NCBI GenBank assembly: GCA_964346985.1
Contig: CAYFWW010000026.1
Location: forward strand, 690 to 64,689
Length of the DNA stretch: 64,000 nt
Direction: 5' to 3'
Source of the DNA: an uncultured Actinomycetota bacterium
GTDB taxonomy: Bacteria > Actinomycetota > Aquicultoria > CAYFWW01
The notes under the pieces are model-generated. The model saw nothing but the letters and a program-made list of their open reading frames with translations. It was not told the DNA's origin and made no database searches. Positions 5,297 through 12,185 of this stretch are shown here, one piece after another. Made by a program: the position numbers and the translations under genes. The stretch's first letter is position 1; every line of letters begins with the position of its first letter.

Positions 5297-5406
5297 TATC
5301 ATCAAGTAAGTAATTCCTATTATTCCTATCGGAAATCTTGACTATATTATGATAATAATATATCCTATTAAAACAATCGATTTAGTATATTATTCAGGTG
5401 TTTTTA

Positions 5407-6276
5407 ATGGATGTTAATCGTCTTAAAGAAGGCGGAATAATTAAACAAAGACAAGCAGATTATTTCTTTGCACGAATTAAAGTATTAGCCGGTGATATTA
5501 ATTCAAGCCAGTTGAGAAAAGTTGCTGAACTGGCAGAAAAATACGGGCAAGGCTGGGTTCACTTAAGTGTGCGGCAAGGTATTGAGATACCTTTCATTGA
5601 ATACGAAAATTTTGAATCATTAATCTCAGAGTTAGAAGAATCCGGTCTATCAATGGGAGCTTGCGGCCCAAGAGTCAGGGTTGTGGTATCTTGCCCTGGT
5701 TCTGCCATTTGTACTTATGGACTTGTTGATACTAAAAATATGGTAAAAAAGATAGATGAATCTCTATATGGCCGTGAAGGCCTGCCCCATAAATTCAAAG
5801 TTGGTATTTCAGGATGTCCAAGTTCCTGCGCAAAACCACAGGAGAATGACTTAGGCTACTTAGGAATTGTCAAGCCAGTCTTTGATGAAGTTAAAGGGGA
5901 ATGTATTAATTGCAGAATTTGTGCTGAAACATGCCCGACTGGAGCAATAACTCTTGACAGTGAACAAAAACCAGTTATTGACCATTCCAAATGCAGTCTT
6001 GACGGCAGGTGTGTCTCTATTTGCCCGACAGAAGCGATTCAAGCCGAAAGAAAAGGGTGGCGCATATATGTGGGCGGTAAGTTTGGCCGCAAACCTTGCT
6101 TGGGTCTCCCGCTTATTGATTTTGTTGATGATGCAGAAGCTTTAAAAATAGGTGAAAAGGTTTTACAAGCCTACATAGACCTAGGAGAGAAAGGCGAAAG
6201 GTTAAGAGAGGTTATTGATCGTGTGGGATTTGAGAATTTTAAGAAAGAGGTACTGGCTCTTGAAAAACTTTCTTGA
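5407..6276 (+). CDS. small siroheme-[4Fe-4S] sulfite reductase (AsrC/Dsr-like) with embedded 2x[4Fe-4S] ferredoxin domain
   Basis: Siroheme-cluster Cys motif CPGSAIC ... GCPSSC. Ferredoxin motifs CINCRICAETCP and CSLDGRCVSICP. Track start GTG 5398 is an alternative. Confidence 0.8.
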   Translation: MDVNRLKEGGIIKQRQADYFFARIKVLAGDINSSQLRKVAELAEKYGQGWVHLSVRQGIEIPFIEYENFESLISELEESGLSMGACGPRVRVVVSCPGSAICTYGLVDTKNMVKKIDESLYGREGLPHKFKVGISGCPSSCAKPQENDLGYLGIVKPVFDEVKGECINCRICAETCPTGAITLDSEQKPVIDHSKCSLDGRCVSICPTEAIQAERKGWRIYVGGKFGRKPCLGLPLIDFVDDAEALKIGEKVLQAYIDLGEKGERLREVIDRVGFENFKKEVLALEKLS

Positions 6277-6490
6277 TTTACGGGGAGTTATCTGTCCGAT
6301 GAATTTCGTCAAAGCCAAATTAAAGATAGAAGAAGCAAGAGATGGAGAGCAAGTTGAATTCTGGTTGGACGATGGTGAACCAGTTGCTAATGTTCCAAGG
6401 AGCTTGAAGGAAGAAGGACATAAAATCATTGACTTAAAACGTGTTTCTAATTATTTCTGCTTAATTGTAAAAAAGAAAGGAGAAAATTGA
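6260..6490 (+). CDS. tusA: TusA/SirA-family sulfur carrier protein
   Basis: LDLRGVICPMNFVKAKLKIEE is a TusA-type active-site Cys motif. TTG 6260 with AGAGG 9 nt upstream gives about 76 aa. The track ATG 6215 would overlap the sulfite reductase by 62 nt. Confidence 0.7.
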   Translation: MKNFLDLRGVICPMNFVKAKLKIEEARDGEQVEFWLDDGEPVANVPRSLKEEGHKIIDLKRVSNYFCLIVKKKGEN

Positions 6491-7183
6491 ATGGATGATT
6501 TAAGAGAATTAGAAGCTTTAAGCACAGAGGATATAATCAAATGGGCTTATGAACTTCACGGTGACAAGATAGCTATCGCTTCAAGCTTTGGAGCTGAAGA
6601 TGTTGTCTTAATTGATATTGCTCAACGGATAATTGATAAACCGAGAGTATTCACTCTTGATACCGGGCGTCTTCATCAAGAAACATATAAATTAATCGAT
6701 AAGGTTAGAAAAGACTATCAAATCGATATTGAAGTATTTTTTCCAAATTATAAAGATGTTGAAGAAATGGTCAAGGACAATGGTCTTGATCTTTTTTATA
6801 AAGGAATCGAGTATAGAAAACTGTGCTGTAAAGTGAGAAAGATTGATCCCTTAAAAAGGGCCTTGACTGGTCTGAAGGGATGGATTTGCGGTCTTAGGAA
6901 AGAACAGTCGCAAAGCAGGACAGATTTAAAAAAAATTGAAATAGATGAAGCTAACAATGGAATTATCAAGATTAATCCCCTTATTGACTGGTCAATCGAT
7001 GAAATTTGGAATTATATACAAGAAAATAAAGTACCCTATAATCCTCTTCACGATGAAGGTTATCCCAGTATAGGTTGTGAACCATGCACTCGAGCTATTC
7101 AACCCGGTGAAGATGTCCGGGCCGGCCGCTGGTGGTGGGAGAATCCGGAGCAAAAAGAATGCGGAATACACGTCACGAGGTAA
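6491..7183 (+). CDS. cysH: adenylylsulfate (APS)/PAPS reductase, Fe-S-cluster type, thioredoxin-dependent
   Basis: SFGAEDVVLID, LDTGRLHQETY, Cys pair CC (KLCCKVRK) plus CEPC, and C-terminal ECGIH catalytic motif. Confidence 0.9.
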   Translation: MDDLRELEALSTEDIIKWAYELHGDKIAIASSFGAEDVVLIDIAQRIIDKPRVFTLDTGRLHQETYKLIDKVRKDYQIDIEVFFPNYKDVEEMVKDNGLDLFYKGIEYRKLCCKVRKIDPLKRALTGLKGWICGLRKEQSQSRTDLKKIEIDEANNGIIKINPLIDWSIDEIWNYIQENKVPYNPLHDEGYPSIGCEPCTRAIQPGEDVRAGRWWWENPEQKECGIHVTR

Positions 7184-7294
7184 CCATGCATAGAGAAAAC
7201 AAATCTAATTATTCTTATATGGATTTTAATATTTACGACGGCAAATTATTCAGAATTTTAAGATTAAATTTAGCTCGAGATTTTAAATTGACGG

Positions 7295-8062
7295 GTGAGA
7301 CAGTTGGGTTTTGAATTATCCATAATTGGTTTATTTGTCGGCATATTGATAGGTGTTTCCGGTATTGGCGGAGGAGCCATTATGGCACCGATTCTTATTT
7401 TTTTAGGCATTGGCCCGTCATATGTAGTTGGAGCTGATTTGTTCTATTCATTCTTGACAAAATTTGTTGGTGGATTTTATCACTGGAAAAACAATAAAGT
7501 CGATCTGGGCATAACCAAAGATTTGTTATTAGGCAGTATTCCATTTTCTTTGCTAGGTGTTTTGGTTCATAAGTATTTTCAGATTGCCTTTGGTGAAGTG
7601 ACTATCCGTAATATTATAGGTGTCGTGCTTTTATTTGTATCTGTATTTATTCTTGTCAGGGCATTTTGGAAGGTTTCCCCTTGCGAAACAAGATTCAGTC
7701 GGGTAAGAAGATGCCGGAAGAAGGTTCTCTTTATTATTGGCAGTATTGTTGGTTTTTTAGTTGGTTTGACCTCAGTAGGAAGCGGAACTTTAATACTAAG
7801 CAGTTTATTTTTGATTTTTCCCAAATTATCACTGAGTAAGATAGTAAGTACTGATATCTTTCATGGATTTCTTATGGTAAGCGGAGCTGCTTTTCTCCAT
7901 CTTTTTTTAGGAAATGTTAATTTTTTTATTGTTGGTTATATATTACTAGGCTCAATCCCTGGTGTAATACTAGGAAGCAATTTAGCTTTTAAATTGAACG
8001 AAGGGTTTCTTGCCATTTTGCTAGCGTCGCTGCTAGCTTTATCTGGAGTAAAAATGCTATGA
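7295..8062 (+). CDS. TauE/SafE (TSUP) family sulfite/sulfur-compound permease
   Basis: 255 aa, about 8 TM helices, duplicated G-rich motifs (GVSGIGGGAIM, GLTSVGSGTL). Confidence 0.75.
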   Translation: MRQLGFELSIIGLFVGILIGVSGIGGGAIMAPILIFLGIGPSYVVGADLFYSFLTKFVGGFYHWKNNKVDLGITKDLLLGSIPFSLLGVLVHKYFQIAFGEVTIRNIIGVVLLFVSVFILVRAFWKVSPCETRFSRVRRCRKKVLFIIGSIVGFLVGLTSVGSGTLILSSLFLIFPKLSLSKIVSTDIFHGFLMVSGAAFLHLFLGNVNFFIVGYILLGSIPGVILGSNLAFKLNEGFLAILLASLLALSGVKML

Positions 8063-8490
8063 GATTATTTTTTTCAAAAGATACTTATCAGAAAATTATA
8101 GAACACGCTAAAAAGGAGTTTCCTAAGGAAGCCTGTGGGATTATTGGCGGAGTTGAAAACAAAGGGCTAAATGTCTTTCCATTGACCAATACCGATAAGA
8201 GCCCTATTTCATATTTTGCGTCTCCTGAAGAACAATTTAAAGTATTTAAAAAGATTAGAAAAAAAGGTTTGAGCCTAGTAGCAATATATCATTCGCATCC
8301 TCATTCAATCGCTAAGCCTTCTCAGAAAGATGTCGAGTTGGCTTTTTACCCTGATGCATTTTATATTATTATCTCCCTGGCAAATAGGGCTTTGCCTGAT
8401 TTAAAAGCTTTTAAGATTAATCAAAAGAAAGTAGAGGAAGCGGAGATTATTATAAAGGAGGAAGAAGATGCCTATTCAAATTTATATTAA
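8059..8490 (+). CDS. JAMM/MPN+ metalloprotease (Mec/HcyD-like)
   Basis: EACG ... [14 protein letters not shown] is a complete E / HxH-x7-S-xx-D JAMM motif. ATGA overlap with the upstream gene. Confidence 0.85.
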
Positions 8491-9586
8491 TGGAAAATCC
8501 GAGCTTGTAAATGAAAAATTCAATCTTTTGGATTTTCTTTCCAAGAAGGAAATTAGGCCGGAAGTAGTCAGCGTTGAACTCAATGGCCAATTATTAAAAC
8601 GGGAGAACTTTAAAGATGCAATTATTCAAGATAACGATCAAGTTGAAATTATCTTTCATTTAAGCGGAGGGCAAAGATTTACGGATGTAGCAGAATTAAT
8701 TGGCAATACTCCTTTGATACAAGTAAATTCTGAAGGAGCAAAGATGGCTGAGATCTGGGCCAAACTTGAATCATATAATCCCGGAGGGAGTGTCAAAGAC
8801 AGAATTGCCTTGAGTATGATTGACGATGCTGAAAAGAAAGGACTGCTCAAACCAGGAGGTACTATTGTCGAACCAACTTCAGGAAATACAGGAATTGGCC
8901 TGGCCTTGATTGCTTCTGCTAGAGGGTATCGTTTGATACTTACCATGCCCGAAAGTATGAGCAAAGAGCGAATTGGAATTTTAGAAACTTTTGGAGCTGA
9001 AGTGATCCTGACTCCGGCAGCTGAGGGAATGAATGGAGCAGTGAAAGAAGCGGAGAAAGTAGCAAAACAACATAATGCTTATATTCCCCAACAATTTGAT
9101 AATCCTGCTAATCCAGAAATACACCGTAAGACAACTGCCGAAGAAATATGGAGTGATACTGAGGGGCAAATCGATGCCTTTGTGGCTGGAGTTGGGACAG
9201 GAGGAACTATAACCGGGGTAGGCGAGATTTTAAAGTCGAGGAATGACTCTATATATATTGTGGCAGTAGAGCCAGATAAATCTCCTGTTTTGTCGGGAGG
9301 AAAACCAGGCTCACACCGGATTCAAGGTATTGGAGCAGGTTTTATTCCAAGCGTGCTAAATATGGATTTGGTAGATGAAGTATTAAAGGTAAAAGATGAA
9401 GAAGCTTATAGCACTAAGATGGAGCTGGCTAAAAAAGAGGGTCTATTGGTTGGAATTTCATCAGGTGCAGCCTGTTTTGCGGCAAGGATAATTGCCAAGA
9501 AGTTAGGTTTAGGCAAGAGAGTGGTTACTATTTTTCCTGATACAGGAGAACGCTACCTTAGCCTTGCTCCTTATTTTAGATATTGA
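8468..9586 (+). CDS. ThiS/CysO-like ubiquitin-fold sulfur carrier fused N-terminally to cysteine synthase (CysM/CysK)
   Basis: Residues 1-68 resemble ThiS and end ...[11 protein letters not shown] canonical CysK N-terminus follows immediately ([14 protein letters not shown]), with PLP-Lys motif SVKDR and [10 protein letters not shown]. Confidence 0.85.
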
Positions 9587-9625: not shown

Positions 9626-10882
9626 GTGGCAAATGTGAGCTTTATAAAGGGCTTAAAATGCCGGGAGTGCGGACATAGATATGAAAGTGGAGCACTTTAT
9701 GTGTGTGAATATTGCTTTGGTTCTCTTGAAGTTGAGTATGATTATCTGGGCATTACAAAAGTGCTTTCCCGGGATATTATTGAAGGAAGAGAAAAAAATA
9801 TGTGGCGTTATAAAGAGCTCTTGCCTTTGGAGGGTGAAGCTACTGACGGTATCGGTACCGGTTATACACCTTTCTTTAAAGCAGAAAAACTTGGAGAGAA
9901 AATTGGAATCAAAGAGTTATATATAAAAGATGATTCAGTTAATCATCCCACTCTTTCATTTAAAGATAGGGTAGTTGCAGTAGCACTTTCACGTGCTAAA
10001 GAGCTGGGCTTTACCGTTACCGCTTGTGCATCAACAGGAAATCTGGCTAATTCTGTTGCTGCGCAGTCAGCAAAGACCGGGCTTAATGTTTTTATTTTTA
10101 TTCCGGCTGATTTAGAGAGTGGAAAGATTGTCTCTACTCTTGTTTACGGAGCGACTCTTATTGCTGTTAAGGGTAATTATGATGAGGTAAACCGCCTCTG
10201 TAGTGAAATAGCAGCTGAAAAAGATTGGGCTTTCGTGAATATTAATATTAGGCCTTATTATGCTGAAGGATCAAAAACTTTTGGATACGAGATAATCGAA
10301 CAACTTGGCTGGGAGCCACCTGATCATATAGTGGTACCTGTTGCCGGCGGTTCTTTAATAACCAAGATATGGAAATCAATCAATGAGTTTAAAAAAGTTG
10401 GAATTATTAAAAACAACAAGACCAAGATACATGCTGCTCAAGCAGAAGGATGCAGCCCAGTTATTACTGCCCTTAAAGAAAAAAGTGATGTTATAAAACC
10501 AGTTAAACCAAAGACAATTGTAAAGTCTTTAGCAATTGGAAACCCGGCTGATGGATATTATGCGGTTCAAACAGTTAATAAAAGCGGGGGAAGCGGTGAA
10601 AGCGTCACTGACCATGAAGTAATAGAGGGTATTAAACTATTAGCTCAAACTGAGGGTGTATTTTCGGAAACTGCAGGTGGAGTGACTGTAGCTACTGCCA
10701 AGAAACTTTCTCAAAAGGGTTTATTTAATAAAGATGAGATAGTGGTTTTAGCCATAACTGGCAATGGGTTGAAGACTAAGGAAGTGCTATCAGGAAAACT
10801 TGAGGAACCAATATATATTAAACCAAGCTTAAGTTCATTTGAAGAAGCAACAAAGGGGGTGAGCTTAGTTGGCAACAGTTAG
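9626..10882 (+). CDS. threonine synthase-family PLP enzyme with N-terminal zinc ribbon
   Basis: CRECGH...CEYC zinc ribbon, PLP-Lys motif LSFKDR, ASTGNLANS. GTG 9635 is an alternative start. Confidence 0.8.
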   Translation: MANVSFIKGLKCRECGHRYESGALYVCEYCFGSLEVEYDYLGITKVLSRDIIEGREKNMWRYKELLPLEGEATDGIGTGYTPFFKAEKLGEKIGIKELYIKDDSVNHPTLSFKDRVVAVALSRAKELGFTVTACASTGNLANSVAAQSAKTGLNVFIFIPADLESGKIVSTLVYGATLIAVKGNYDEVNRLCSEIAAEKDWAFVNINIRPYYAEGSKTFGYEIIEQLGWEPPDHIVVPVAGGSLITKIWKSINEFKKVGIIKNNKTKIHAAQAEGCSPVITALKEKSDVIKPVKPKTIVKSLAIGNPADGYYAVQTVNKSGGSGESVTDHEVIEGIKLLAQTEGVFSETAGGVTVATAKKLSQKGLFNKDEIVVLAITGNGLKTKEVLSGKLEEPIYIKPSLSSFEEATKGVSLVGNS

Positions 10883-11936
10883 AATTCCAACACCAATACA
10901 AAAGCTTACTAAAGGACAAGCAATAGTCGAGGCTGAAGGCAATAACCTCTCTGACCTTATCGAAGATTTGGACAAGAAGTTTCCTGGCTTCAAAGAAAGA
11001 TTATGCGAAGAAGACGGAGAAGTAAAAAGATTTATTAATATATATATAAACGAAGAAGATATTCGCTTTCTTGACGGACTTTATACTGAGATCAAAGATG
11101 AGGATAAAGTCTCAATTATCCCGGCAATTGCCGGAGGCTCTTTAAGCGAAGATGAAGTTGAAAGGTACAGCCGCCAGATTATTTTATCTGAGATAGGAGG
11201 AAAAGGCCAAGAAAAATTACTTAATTCCTCTGTTCTGGTAGTCGGCTCAGGCGGCTTAGGTTCGCCAGTCCTTCTTTATCTGGCAGCAGCAGGCATTGGC
11301 AGAATAGGAGTAGTCGATAGTGATGTGGTTGAATTAAACAATCTTCAAAGACAGATTATTCATGATACTCAAGATGTTGGAAAAGCTAAAGTGATTTCCG
11401 CTAAAGAGACAATGTCTAAAATTAATCCTGATACTATTATTGATGTTTACGAATTAAGGCTTAATTCAGGTAATGCTTTTGAATTAATTTCAGAATATGA
11501 CCTGGTAATTGATGGCAGTGATAACTTTGCGACCAGATATCTTCTTAATGATGCTTGTGTCATGCTAAAAAAACCTTTGATTGAAGCGGCTATTTTAAAA
11601 TTTGAAGGACAAATTATGTCGGTTATACCTGAAGATGGCCCATGTTACCGTTGCCTTTTTCCCGAACCACCTCCTGCTGGATCAGTGCCAAACTGCCAAC
11701 AAGCTGGAATTCTTGGACCGGTAGCCGGCTTGTTAGGTTCACTCCAAGCTATCGAAGCTTTAAAAGTTATTTTGGGAAAAGGAGATATTTTGAAGGGGAA
11801 ATTGCTGGTTATAGATAGCTTAAGTATGAATTTTCATCTGGTTAAATTAAGGAAGAATCCTGATTGTGAAGTATGCTCAGATCAGCCGCGAATAGAAAAA
11901 CTTATTGATTATGAAGAGTGGTGCGCAAGGAGGTAA
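10869..11936 (+). CDS. MoaD/ThiS-like ubiquitin-fold domain fused N-terminally to ThiF/MoeB-type E1 adenylyltransferase
   Basis: Residues 1-90 are MoaD-like and end IIPAIAGG. A canonical MoeB N-terminus follows directly (ERYSRQIIL, VVGSGGLGSP). Zn motifs CYRC and CEVC. No rhodanese domain. Confidence 0.85.
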   Translation: MATVRIPTPIQKLTKGQAIVEAEGNNLSDLIEDLDKKFPGFKERLCEEDGEVKRFINIYINEEDIRFLDGLYTEIKDEDKVSIIPAIAGGSLSEDEVERYSRQIILSEIGGKGQEKLLNSSVLVVGSGGLGSPVLLYLAAAGIGRIGVVDSDVVELNNLQRQIIHDTQDVGKAKVISAKETMSKINPDTIIDVYELRLNSGNAFELISEYDLVIDGSDNFATRYLLNDACVMLKKPLIEAAILKFEGQIMSVIPEDGPCYRCLFPEPPPAGSVPNCQQAGILGPVAGLLGSLQAIEALKVILGKGDILKGKLLVIDSLSMNFHLVKLRKNPDCEVCSDQPRIEKLIDYEEWCARR

Positions 11937-11942
11937 AGAGAA

Positions 11943-12185
11943 ATGGCTAAAAGAATAGTCAGATTGACTTTTCCAGAGGACCTGGTTAATAAACCTATTA
12001 TCTTTCAGATGGCCAAGAAATTTGATTTGATACCGAATATTAAAAGGGCCAAGGTCAGTGAGACAGCCGGCGAGGTTGTTCTGGAGATTACCGGAGATAA
12101 AGAAAAACTCAAAGATGGCCTAGCCTATATATCCGAACTTGGAGTTATTGTAGAAAATATCCCAGGTGATATTGTAGAGGGATAA
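11943..12185 (+). CDS. NIL-domain protein
   Basis: 80 aa; RLTFPEDLVNKPIIFQMAKKFDLIPNIKRAKV...GEVVLEITGD matches the NIL (MetN C-terminal-like) domain pattern. Confidence 0.6.
   Translation: MAKRIVRLTFPEDLVNKPIIFQMAKKFDLIPNIKRAKVSETAGEVVLEITGDKEKLKDGLAYISELGVIVENIPGDIVEG

Follow-up and report, generated by a model that had tools for sequence, protein, structure and literature searches.

The window analysed here, a 64-kb stretch of 35% GC from an uncultured Actinomycetota bacterium (contig CAYFWW010000026.1, positions 690 to 64,689), contains an operon in which a single open reading frame (ORF) encodes a ThiS-type sulfur-carrier domain followed, in frame, by a CysK-type cysteine synthase (ThiS::CysK). 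The operon is tightly packed, with intergenic gaps from −23 to +214 nt, and its genes follow the order CysG-N-like protein, small sulfite reductase, TusA, phosphoadenylylsulfate/adenylylsulfate (PAPS/APS) reductase, TauE permease, JAMM metalloprotease, ThiS::CysK, threonine-synthase (ThrC)-like enzyme with a Cys4 ribbon, a second ubiquitin-like (Ubl) carrier domain fused to an E1-type adenylyltransferase (E1), NIL-domain protein and CobA/HemD (coordinates in Table 1). Further ORFs for ThiS/MoaD, JAMM or E1 proteins were looked for throughout the window and none was found, the remaining matches all having E > 0.07.

A first-pass annotation of this DNA had described the ThiS::CysK product as a 68-aa beta-grasp domain ending in a diglycine and fused in frame within a 372-aa protein, and this description holds: Pfam places ThiS (PF02597) at residues 12–68 (E 9e-8; 33 bits, cutoff 22.5), a subfamily-specific hidden Markov model (HMM) scores this N-terminal domain between about 1e-26 and 3e-28 in different runs, and the domain closes with Gly67-Gly68 in the motif HLSGG, directly followed by the residues that lead into the enzyme. 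The same annotation called the domain ThiS/CysO-like, of which the ThiS part stands and the CysO part does not. The best PDB matches of residues 1–68 are the ThiS structures of Geobacter (2k5p/3cwi, 2.8e-8), B. subtilis (1tyg_B) and E. coli (1f0z), and CysO gave no match in the PDB search even at E ≤ 10; on these comparisons the fused domain is of the ThiS family and not of the CysO type. A similar correction applies to the enzyme, which had been presented as a complete CysK/CysM. PALP (PF00291) covers residues 76–358 (E 1.6e-76), and the protein reaches 453.7 bits with the NCBIfam cysK model TIGR01139 (cutoff 350.95), which places it among the CysK enzymes, or O-acetylserine sulfhydrylases A (OASS-A). 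Both cysM models are below their cutoffs (TIGR01138, 303.4 against 394.2 bits; NF008735, 292.8 against 413 bits), the top PDB match is M. tuberculosis CysK1 (2q3b, 6.9e-108) and CysM is absent from the top 60 PDB matches of this domain. By these profiles the enzyme is CysK-type, not CysM-type, and it carries the lysine that binds pyridoxal phosphate (PLP) at the position first proposed (S108-V-K110-D-R). An AlphaFold2 model built from a 56-sequence alignment (mean predicted local distance difference test score, pLDDT, 91; predicted TM score 0.78) shows two confident domains, a beta-grasp fold at residues 3–63 (pLDDT 88–93) and a CysK fold, and a Foldseek search with the whole model returned CysK structures only (TM 0.95–0.96). 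As translated, the carrier has no free C-terminal carboxylate; the frame continues for 304 residues past the diglycine without a stop and, therefore, post-translational cleavage would be needed to produce a free carrier.

Is the fusion genuine? In principle, adjacent thiS and cysK genes could be joined artificially by a sequencing frameshift, by the loss of a stop codon or by faulty gene calling. In Nitrospirales the separate genes share only 4 nt, so that one wrong base could be enough to simulate a fusion. Errors do occur in some of the related assemblies: genes are split and stretches of N are present in L012 (from the NCBI metagenome-assembled genome (MAG) GCA_964346885.1), and L011 has an in-frame TAG in the gene of the E1 fusion. 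Against this explanation, no stop or frameshift was found between codon 68 and the CysK domain, which is where the first-pass annotation had located the possible refutation of its proposal, and the same in-frame junction is present in independent assemblies: L009 and L010 (two sequencing runs, 98% identity), L011 (65%) and L012 (67%). Moreover, the combination of PF02597 and PF00291 was found in 87 of the 120 best homologue clusters, at 55–98% identity, in several phyla and with varied linkers; the named sources are MAGs of Omnitrophota, Elusimicrobiota, Margulisiibacteriota and Ratteibacteria. An artefact is thus effectively refuted. There is also no in-frame ATG, GTG or TTG between the diglycine codons and residue 85, and therefore CysK could not be translated separately with an intact N-terminus; an internal translation start for the enzyme was ruled out on this ground.

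With respect to distribution, a full-length fusion profile searched against 1.84 billion representatives collapsed the family into one 50%-identity representative (P0135) plus a fragment, which indicates no more than that the family forms one coherent clade. A contig scan with an alignment of the N-terminal 112 residues was dominated by the generic CysK motif NPGGSVKDR and gives no species-level census, the informative loci being two from Nitrospirales (L018 and L026), one from Armatimonadetes (L079) and one from Actinomycetota (L050). Where the homologue clusters are named, they carry only the label 'cysteine synthase A', and the fusion explains the roughly 70 surplus residues of hundreds of database entries bearing that plain name. 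No published description of ThiS::CysK was found in a literature search of incomplete coverage, which is weak evidence of novelty; the fusion is real, widespread and conserved and, apparently, undescribed.

The junction between the two domains shows a change in conservation. Among 56 aligned fusions, Gly68 is invariant and Gly67 at least 90% conserved, and the segment that follows is unconserved. All 87 fusion clusters keep the diglycine (YMGGG in 59, FMGGG in 14, HLSGG in 9, and some other motif that ends in GG in the last 5). The linker has from about 0 to 20 residues, and the distance from the diglycine to the LIGxTP motif of the enzyme varies from 4 to 25 residues. The residue just after the diglycine, P1′ of the predicted scissile bond, is of 16 different amino-acid types. 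Gly67-Gly68 aligns with the C-terminal diglycine of the Geobacter, B. subtilis and E. coli ThiS structures, the alignments ending there, and the pLDDT of the AlphaFold2 model falls to 66 at residues 61–70, that is, at the junction. A conserved diglycine with a variable linker and P1′ is the pattern expected for cleavage directed by the Ubl domain. In the window the spacing between the diglycine and LIGxTP is 9 residues, equal to the shortest N-termini of standalone CysK proteins, and therefore a cut after Gly68 would leave a CysK of native length; the normal N-terminus attributed to the enzyme at the outset is thus borne out. The P1′ residue is mostly Q, E, A or M and is Ser, Cys or Thr in about 25% of the fusions, and therefore self-cleavage by an acyl shift cannot be general; it was rejected as a candidate.

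The gene immediately upstream encodes the candidate protease. As first reported, it is a complete JAMM/MPN+ protein whose gene overlaps the fusion ORF by exactly 23 nt (8468–8490); it also overlaps the TauE gene by 4 nt. The product matches Pfam Prok-JAB at 2e-23 and contains all the zinc-site residues of the JAMM/MPN+ motif (E24, H78-S-H80-x7-S88-xx-D91). Its nearest solved structures are 2kks_A (4.8e-27), 2kcq_A and P. furiosus JAMM1 (5ld9/5lda; 5ld9 at 8.5e-10), and its score with the NCBIfam desampylase model is 76.7 bits, under the cutoff of 130. To see how regularly the two genes occur together, a survey that the first-pass annotation had suggested, metagenomes were scanned with a ThiS-only alignment and the loci obtained were searched with purpose-built HMMs, yielding 27 fused loci. 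In eleven of these the sequence extends for at least 5 kb to either side of the fusion, and all 11, from 8 distinct lineages, encode a JAMM; with shorter-flank loci included, JAMM accompanies the fusion in 10 distinct lineages. The same gene set with an in-cluster Prok-JAB and a fused ThiS::CysK was found in a locus resembling those of Omnitrophota (L001), in Elusimicrobia (L003–5) and in Margulisiibacteriota (L006–8).

Even if the fusion is cut after the diglycine, the neighbouring JAMM need not be responsible: autoproteolysis or an unlinked protease could do it, leaving JAMM only as a hydrolase of carrier-cysteine or carrier-homocysteine adducts similar to Mec+ of M. tuberculosis. In this respect, the protease that cuts M. 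tuberculosis MoaX is still unidentified (PMC4326299), and in many fused lineages JAMM and the fusion are separated by several kb. The P1′ composition argues against general self-cleavage by an N-to-O/S acyl shift, the JAMM proteins DR0402 and HvJAMM1 have been shown to cut linear Ubl fusions (PMC8832034), and JAMM is present in all of the well-flanked fused loci and overlaps the fusion ORF in the clade of the window. Altogether, we consider a different protease quite improbable and JAMM the likely processor.

Additional evidence for processing comes from the relatives of the carrier domain that are not fused. Of 71 standalone proteins from the same ThiS subfamily, 69 continue past the diglycine, with tails of 1 to 19 or more residues (one residue in 13 proteins, two in 9, three in 12, four in 18 and more in the others), and these proteins are typically encoded in ThiS-ThiF-JAB(-CysK) clusters. 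Given these tails and the E1 and JAMM neighbours, the whole ThiS subfamily looks like a family of pro-carriers that would need C-terminal trimming, with the CysK fusion at the long-extension end of a continuum. If so, a whole ThiS subfamily would be made as pro-proteins whose extension past the diglycine ranges from one residue to an entire enzyme.

Similar trimming is known from other sulfur carriers. HcyS-Ala and QbsE have residues past the diglycine that the JAMM of their operon must remove before activation by E1, the sulfur coming from an in-cluster sulfite reductase. The first, which belongs to the W. succinogenes set HcyS-Ala, HcyD (JAMM), HcyF and MetY, was reportedly described by Krishnamoorthy and Begley in JACS in 2011, and the second, of the Pseudomonas pair QbsE and QbsD, is said to come from work by Godert et al. 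in J Bacteriol in 2007. The trimming of these carriers matches the tails on the 69 standalone ThiS proteins; their extension is of 1–2 residues, whereas that in the window is a whole enzyme of 304 residues.

Two other carrier-enzyme fusions, both confirmed with Pfam, were encountered among the related loci. In L125 (9001–10434) a member of the same ThiS subfamily is N-terminal to a Cys_Met_Meta_PP enzyme of the O-acetylhomoserine-sulfhydrylase type, followed by ThiF and JAB genes; by its domain content, this carrier::client fusion is an independent one and concerns homocysteine synthesis. In the Armatimonadetes MAG locus L079 (7944–8519) a CysO/MoaD-type Ubl domain ending in PAMAGG is joined through a basic linker of about 30 residues to CysK, the contig ending inside the gene; judged by its domains, the other type of carrier has here been fused independently to cysteine synthase. 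In L173 (6902–7696) the JAMM of the cluster is itself fused to an LMWPc (low-molecular-weight phosphatase/ArsC-like) domain, in a protein of 264 aa.

Which, then, is the CysO homologue of the operon? The first-pass annotation had recognised an E1 downstream of the fusion, and the protein is indeed of the ThiF/MoeB type, with the motif GSGGLG and two CxxC. It had missed that the first 90 residues of the same 355-aa protein are a second Ubl domain, ending in PAIAGG. This domain matches Pfam ThiS at 3.3e-15 and M. tuberculosis CysO at 6.1e-21 (3dwg_C) and 4.2e-21 (4n6e_B), both aligned through the terminal diglycine, and by these alignments the true CysO homologue of the operon is the carrier fused to E1 and not the domain fused to CysK. 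In L001, L003 and L006 the same CysO-like carrier is a standalone protein of 91 aa that ends exactly at PAIAGG-stop, and architectures joining MoaD-type carriers to ThiF are widespread in other phyla. Pfam finds only ThiS and ThiF in the E1 protein, with no rhodanese domain, and its score with the MoeZ model NF005902 is 321 bits (cutoff 647), so that it is not an E1 of the MoeZ type. In L011 an in-frame TAG (8584–8586) replaces the GAG (Glu) of relatives inside the CysO-like domain of the E1 fusion; the probable cause is a nonsense mutation or an error of assembly, and recoding was rejected, the only sign of it being a single GAG-to-TAG change in one low-coverage assembly.

These assignments modify the view that the components match the M. 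tuberculosis CysO/CysM/Mec+/MoeZ pathway. The likeness lies in the proposed working: E1 would charge a carrier as thiocarboxylate, the thiocarboxylate would act as nucleophile in a PLP-dependent beta-replacement, and JAMM would release cysteine from the carrier-cysteine adduct. The components, however, differ. The carrier of the window is ThiS-type, the enzyme CysK-type and the E1 devoid of a rhodanese domain, and the carrier is made as a fusion precursor whereas M. tuberculosis CysO ends at a free diglycine. Therefore, the system of the window would be similar to that of M. tuberculosis in working but not orthologous to it.

The two carriers are not fused in the same combination everywhere. 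Both are separate in the Nitrospirales loci L018 and L026, ThiS::CysK alone is fused in L001, L003 and L006, and the CysO-like::E1 alone in L173, where ThiS has 72 aa and ends in GGG followed by the six-residue tail INFYKI; both are fused in the window, L009, L011 and L012. The Nitrospirales genes follow the order ThiS-CysK-E1 and then ThrC-MoaD-NIL-E1-JAB, with two E1 genes, one per carrier module, and this separation into modules implies dedicated carrier-enzyme pairs. In these loci ThiS ends in GGG followed by M or Q, and its TGA stop overlaps the GTG start of cysK as GTGA (8190–8205 in L018, 4600–4615 in L026); therefore, a one-base change would fuse thiS and cysK.

Taking these data together, we think it probable that the operon is an assimilatory route from sulfate to cysteine and homocysteine through protein thiocarboxylates, in which JAMM frees ThiS from CysK. 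In this model, ThiS::CysK would be translated as a 41-kDa precursor from the ribosome-binding site located within the JAMM gene, and JAMM would recognise the beta-grasp body and cut after Gly68, giving in a 1:1 ratio a 68-aa ThiS with a free diglycine carboxylate and a CysK with a native-length N-terminus. The same JAMM would cut the CysO-like carrier from E1 after Gly90. The rhodanese-less E1 would then adenylate each freed carrier, and sulfide from the sulfite reductase, possibly delivered by TusA, would turn the acyl-adenylate into a thiocarboxylate. ThiS thiocarboxylate would attack the aminoacrylate intermediate of CysK and an S-to-N acyl shift would yield a ThiS-cysteine amide, which JAMM would hydrolyse to cysteine and regenerated ThiS. 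Likewise, the CysO-like carrier would serve the ThrC-like enzyme, of the MetM type, to give homocysteine. The model is based on the domain architecture, the conservation of the diglycine, the co-occurrence of JAMM, the pro-carrier subfamily and the absence of a free carrier gene from the window. The cleavage event, the identity of the protease, the pairing of carriers with enzymes and the chemistry are inferred by analogy with M. tuberculosis CysO/CysM/Mec+, W. succinogenes HcyS/HcyD/HcyF and MoaD-MoaE/JAMM. Since both carriers are fused in the clade of the window and no other carrier is encoded in the window, E1 and JAMM would lack substrates without cleavage.

Several points weigh against this model. 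Two fused loci, L139 and L140, have no JAMM; they are the only such cases where the fusion is flanked by more than 4 kb on each side, but their upstream sequence is just 4.5 kb, and in L001, L003 and L101 JAMM lies 5.8–7.7 kb upstream. In most fused lineages JAMM is not adjacent but 2–8 kb away. The CysK domain is a canonical, textbook OASS-A, 67–68% identical to standalone CysK proteins, of which at least one (L174) is encoded away from any carrier genes, and it may simply use free sulfide. Finally, the genuine CysO homologue is the other carrier, fused to E1 or standalone, which could in principle feed CysK, and Iyer et al. 2006 (PMC1779556) argue for non-carrier roles of some fused Ubl domains (Ubl-ThiF).

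The points on the CysK domain, the other carrier and Ubl-ThiF would fit a ThiS domain that stays attached and does not work as a carrier but as a docking or regulatory beta-grasp, for example recruiting E1 or the CysO-like carrier or stabilising a complex. In that case the sulfur for CysK would come from free sulfide or from the CysO-like thiocarboxylate, and JAMM would serve the CysO-like carrier only. A permanently attached domain would not explain why the diglycine is invariant at the junction when the residues beyond it vary freely, nor why the nearest relatives of the domain are standalone pro-ThiS proteins encoded beside their own E1 and JAMM. The dedicated carrier-enzyme pairs implied by the Nitrospirales modules also speak against CysK being fed by the other carrier and, because the CysO-like carrier is itself fused in the clade of the window, cleavage would be needed anyway. 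For these reasons we regard a non-carrier ThiS domain as unlikely. With release by JAMM as the preferred model, the initial proposal that the carrier is made as a precursor with its client enzyme, that it needs a free diglycine carboxylate and that JAMM is its likely processor is strongly supported by the 87 clusters that keep the diglycine, the regular presence of JAMM and the tailed unfused relatives, the cleavage itself remaining a prediction. A bolder possibility, which we judge rather unlikely, is that the carriers of the pathway are all made locked in this clade, as ThiS::CysK and CysO-like::E1, and that proteolysis by JAMM is an obligatory and possibly regulated activation switch. If true, JAMM would be a switch, for example metal- or redox-sensitive, for the synthesis of cysteine and methionine, and this would amount to a bacterial form of the processing of ubiquitin precursors, serving as a metabolic checkpoint and not just for housekeeping maturation.

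Precedents for the proposed release exist in molybdopterin synthesis. The JAMM protein DR0402 cleaves the MoaD-MoaE fusion DR2607 of D. radiodurans, exposing a C-terminal glycine (PMC8832034), and M. tuberculosis MoaX is active only after cleavage behind Gly82 (PMC4326299). A 2024 survey found MoaD-MoaE fusions in 775 of 33,957 bacterial genomes, as well as MoaD-MoeB fusions (PMC11237513). As in these proteins and in SAMP1-MoaE, the substrate of HvJAMM1 in H. volcanii, the carrier of the window is N-terminal to its own client with a diglycine at the junction (PMC8832034, PMC4326299, PMC11237513); the in-frame fusion, the junction diglycine and the co-encoded JAMM are all shared with this paradigm. 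Cleavage by JAMM after the diglycine, needed to expose the carboxylate, is demonstrated there and predicted here. The differences are that the window concerns cysteine instead of molybdopterin, that the client is a PLP-dependent CysK and not MoaE, that the carrier is ThiS-type and not MoaD-type, and that JAMM is encoded in the same operon by a gene overlapping that of the fusion. Hence the system is like the M. tuberculosis pathway and the MoaD-MoaE/JAMM paradigm without being orthologous to either. Because these prokaryotic precedents are closer, eukaryotic ubiquitin, to which the fusion had initially been compared, is not its nearest analogue. Ubiquitin precursors (ubiquitin-ribosomal protein fusions and polyubiquitin) do share a GG-ending beta-grasp domain that is translated at the N-terminus of a larger protein and set free by a dedicated peptidase, but their partner is not the client of the Ubl, the peptidases are mainly cysteine-protease deubiquitinases and the Ubl serves conjugation, not sulfur transfer.

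The gene context also has precedents. Rows 4c–4e of Iyer, Burroughs and Aravind 2006 (PMC1779556) present predicted operons combining ThiS/MoaD, JAB, E1, cysteine synthase and sulfate-assimilation genes. The fusions listed there include ThiS-ThiG, MoaD-MoaE, sulfite reductase-ThiS and Ubl-ThiF, and a term search of that article returned no ThiS::CysK. That one E1 can serve several carriers is known from MoeZR (PMC3227635). A thiocarboxylate route to homocysteine through MetM and MetO (Streptomyces MetM/MetO/Mec/MoeZ) is described in the GapMind 2026 preprint; it combines a ThrC-like enzyme, a CysO/MoaD-like carrier, a JAMM maturase and an E1, and the ThrC-like enzyme and second carrier of the window match this module. 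Unlike in Streptomyces, the MetO-like carrier is here fused to E1 and the module lies beside a separate ThiS::CysK, its function being proposed from gene context only.

If the proposed release takes place, it would extend the maturation of precursor Ubl carriers by JAMM, so far shown for molybdopterin synthase, to core sulfur amino-acid synthesis. For specialists it would be a neat and testable extension more than a surprise, to which the precursor subfamily and the doubly locked clade add value. The overlapping genes provide a compact natural substrate-protease pair for studying how prokaryotic JAMM proteins recognise Ubl-GG junctions. There is also a consequence for metabolic reconstruction of uncultivated phyla such as Omnitrophota, Elusimicrobiota, Margulisiibacteriota and Ratteibacteria, for which pathway tools otherwise infer a plain sulfide-dependent CysK.

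Table 1. Features of the sulfur-assimilation operon, with positions in the 64-kb window.
Feature	Position	Strand	Basis
Small sulfite reductase	5398-6276	+	Pfam
TusA	within 6215-6490	+	Pfam
PAPS/APS reductase	6491-7183	+	Pfam
TauE/SafE permease	7295-8062	+	Pfam
JAMM/MPN+ zinc metalloprotease, 143 aa; proposed maturase and carrier-Cys/Hcy (homocysteine) hydrolase	8059-8490	+	Prok-JAB, motif, PDB
Strong Shine-Dalgarno AAGGAGG	8455-8461	+	Read from sequence; 6 nt before fusion ATG, within 3′ end of JAMM gene
ThiS::CysK fusion ORF	8468-9586	+	372 aa, ATG start
ThiS-type beta-grasp sulfur-carrier domain, aa 1-68, ending HLSGG	8468-8671	+	Pfam, PDB, AlphaFold2, conservation
Predicted scissile bond Gly68/Gln69	8669-8674	+	Gly68 alignment, AlphaFold2 dip, variable P1′; cleavage predicted
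CysK-type O-acetylserine sulfhydrylase domain, aa 69-372, native-length N-terminus, PLP lysine K110	8672-9586	+	TIGR01139, PDB, Foldseek
Threonine-synthase-like PLP enzyme, N-terminal Cys4 zinc ribbon	9626-10882	+	PALP 1.2e-70, thrC-family models
CysO/MoaD-type beta-grasp carrier domain, aa 1-90, ending PAIAGG, in frame with E1	10869-11138	+	Pfam, PDB
ThiF/MoeB-type E1 adenylyltransferase domain, rhodanese-less	11139-11936	+	Pfam ThiF 2.5e-87
NIL-domain protein, 80 aa, standalone	11943-12185	+	Pfam NIL 3.1e-17

With regard to the remaining genes of the operon, the ThrC-like gene adjoins the CysO/MoaD-like carrier in every related locus, and this context makes its product a candidate thiocarboxylate-dependent homocysteine synthase of the MetM type, likely misannotated as ThrC. 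The NIL gene adjoins ThiF in nearly all related loci (L001, L006, L009, L011, L012, L018, L026 and L173). The upstream sulfate-assimilation gene set (5398–8062) recurs in related loci. A short unannotated ORF (7132–7314) lies between the PAPS reductase and TauE genes, and at the same position L009 and L012 have small ORFs of 42 and 76 aa, respectively, that match no Pfam family.

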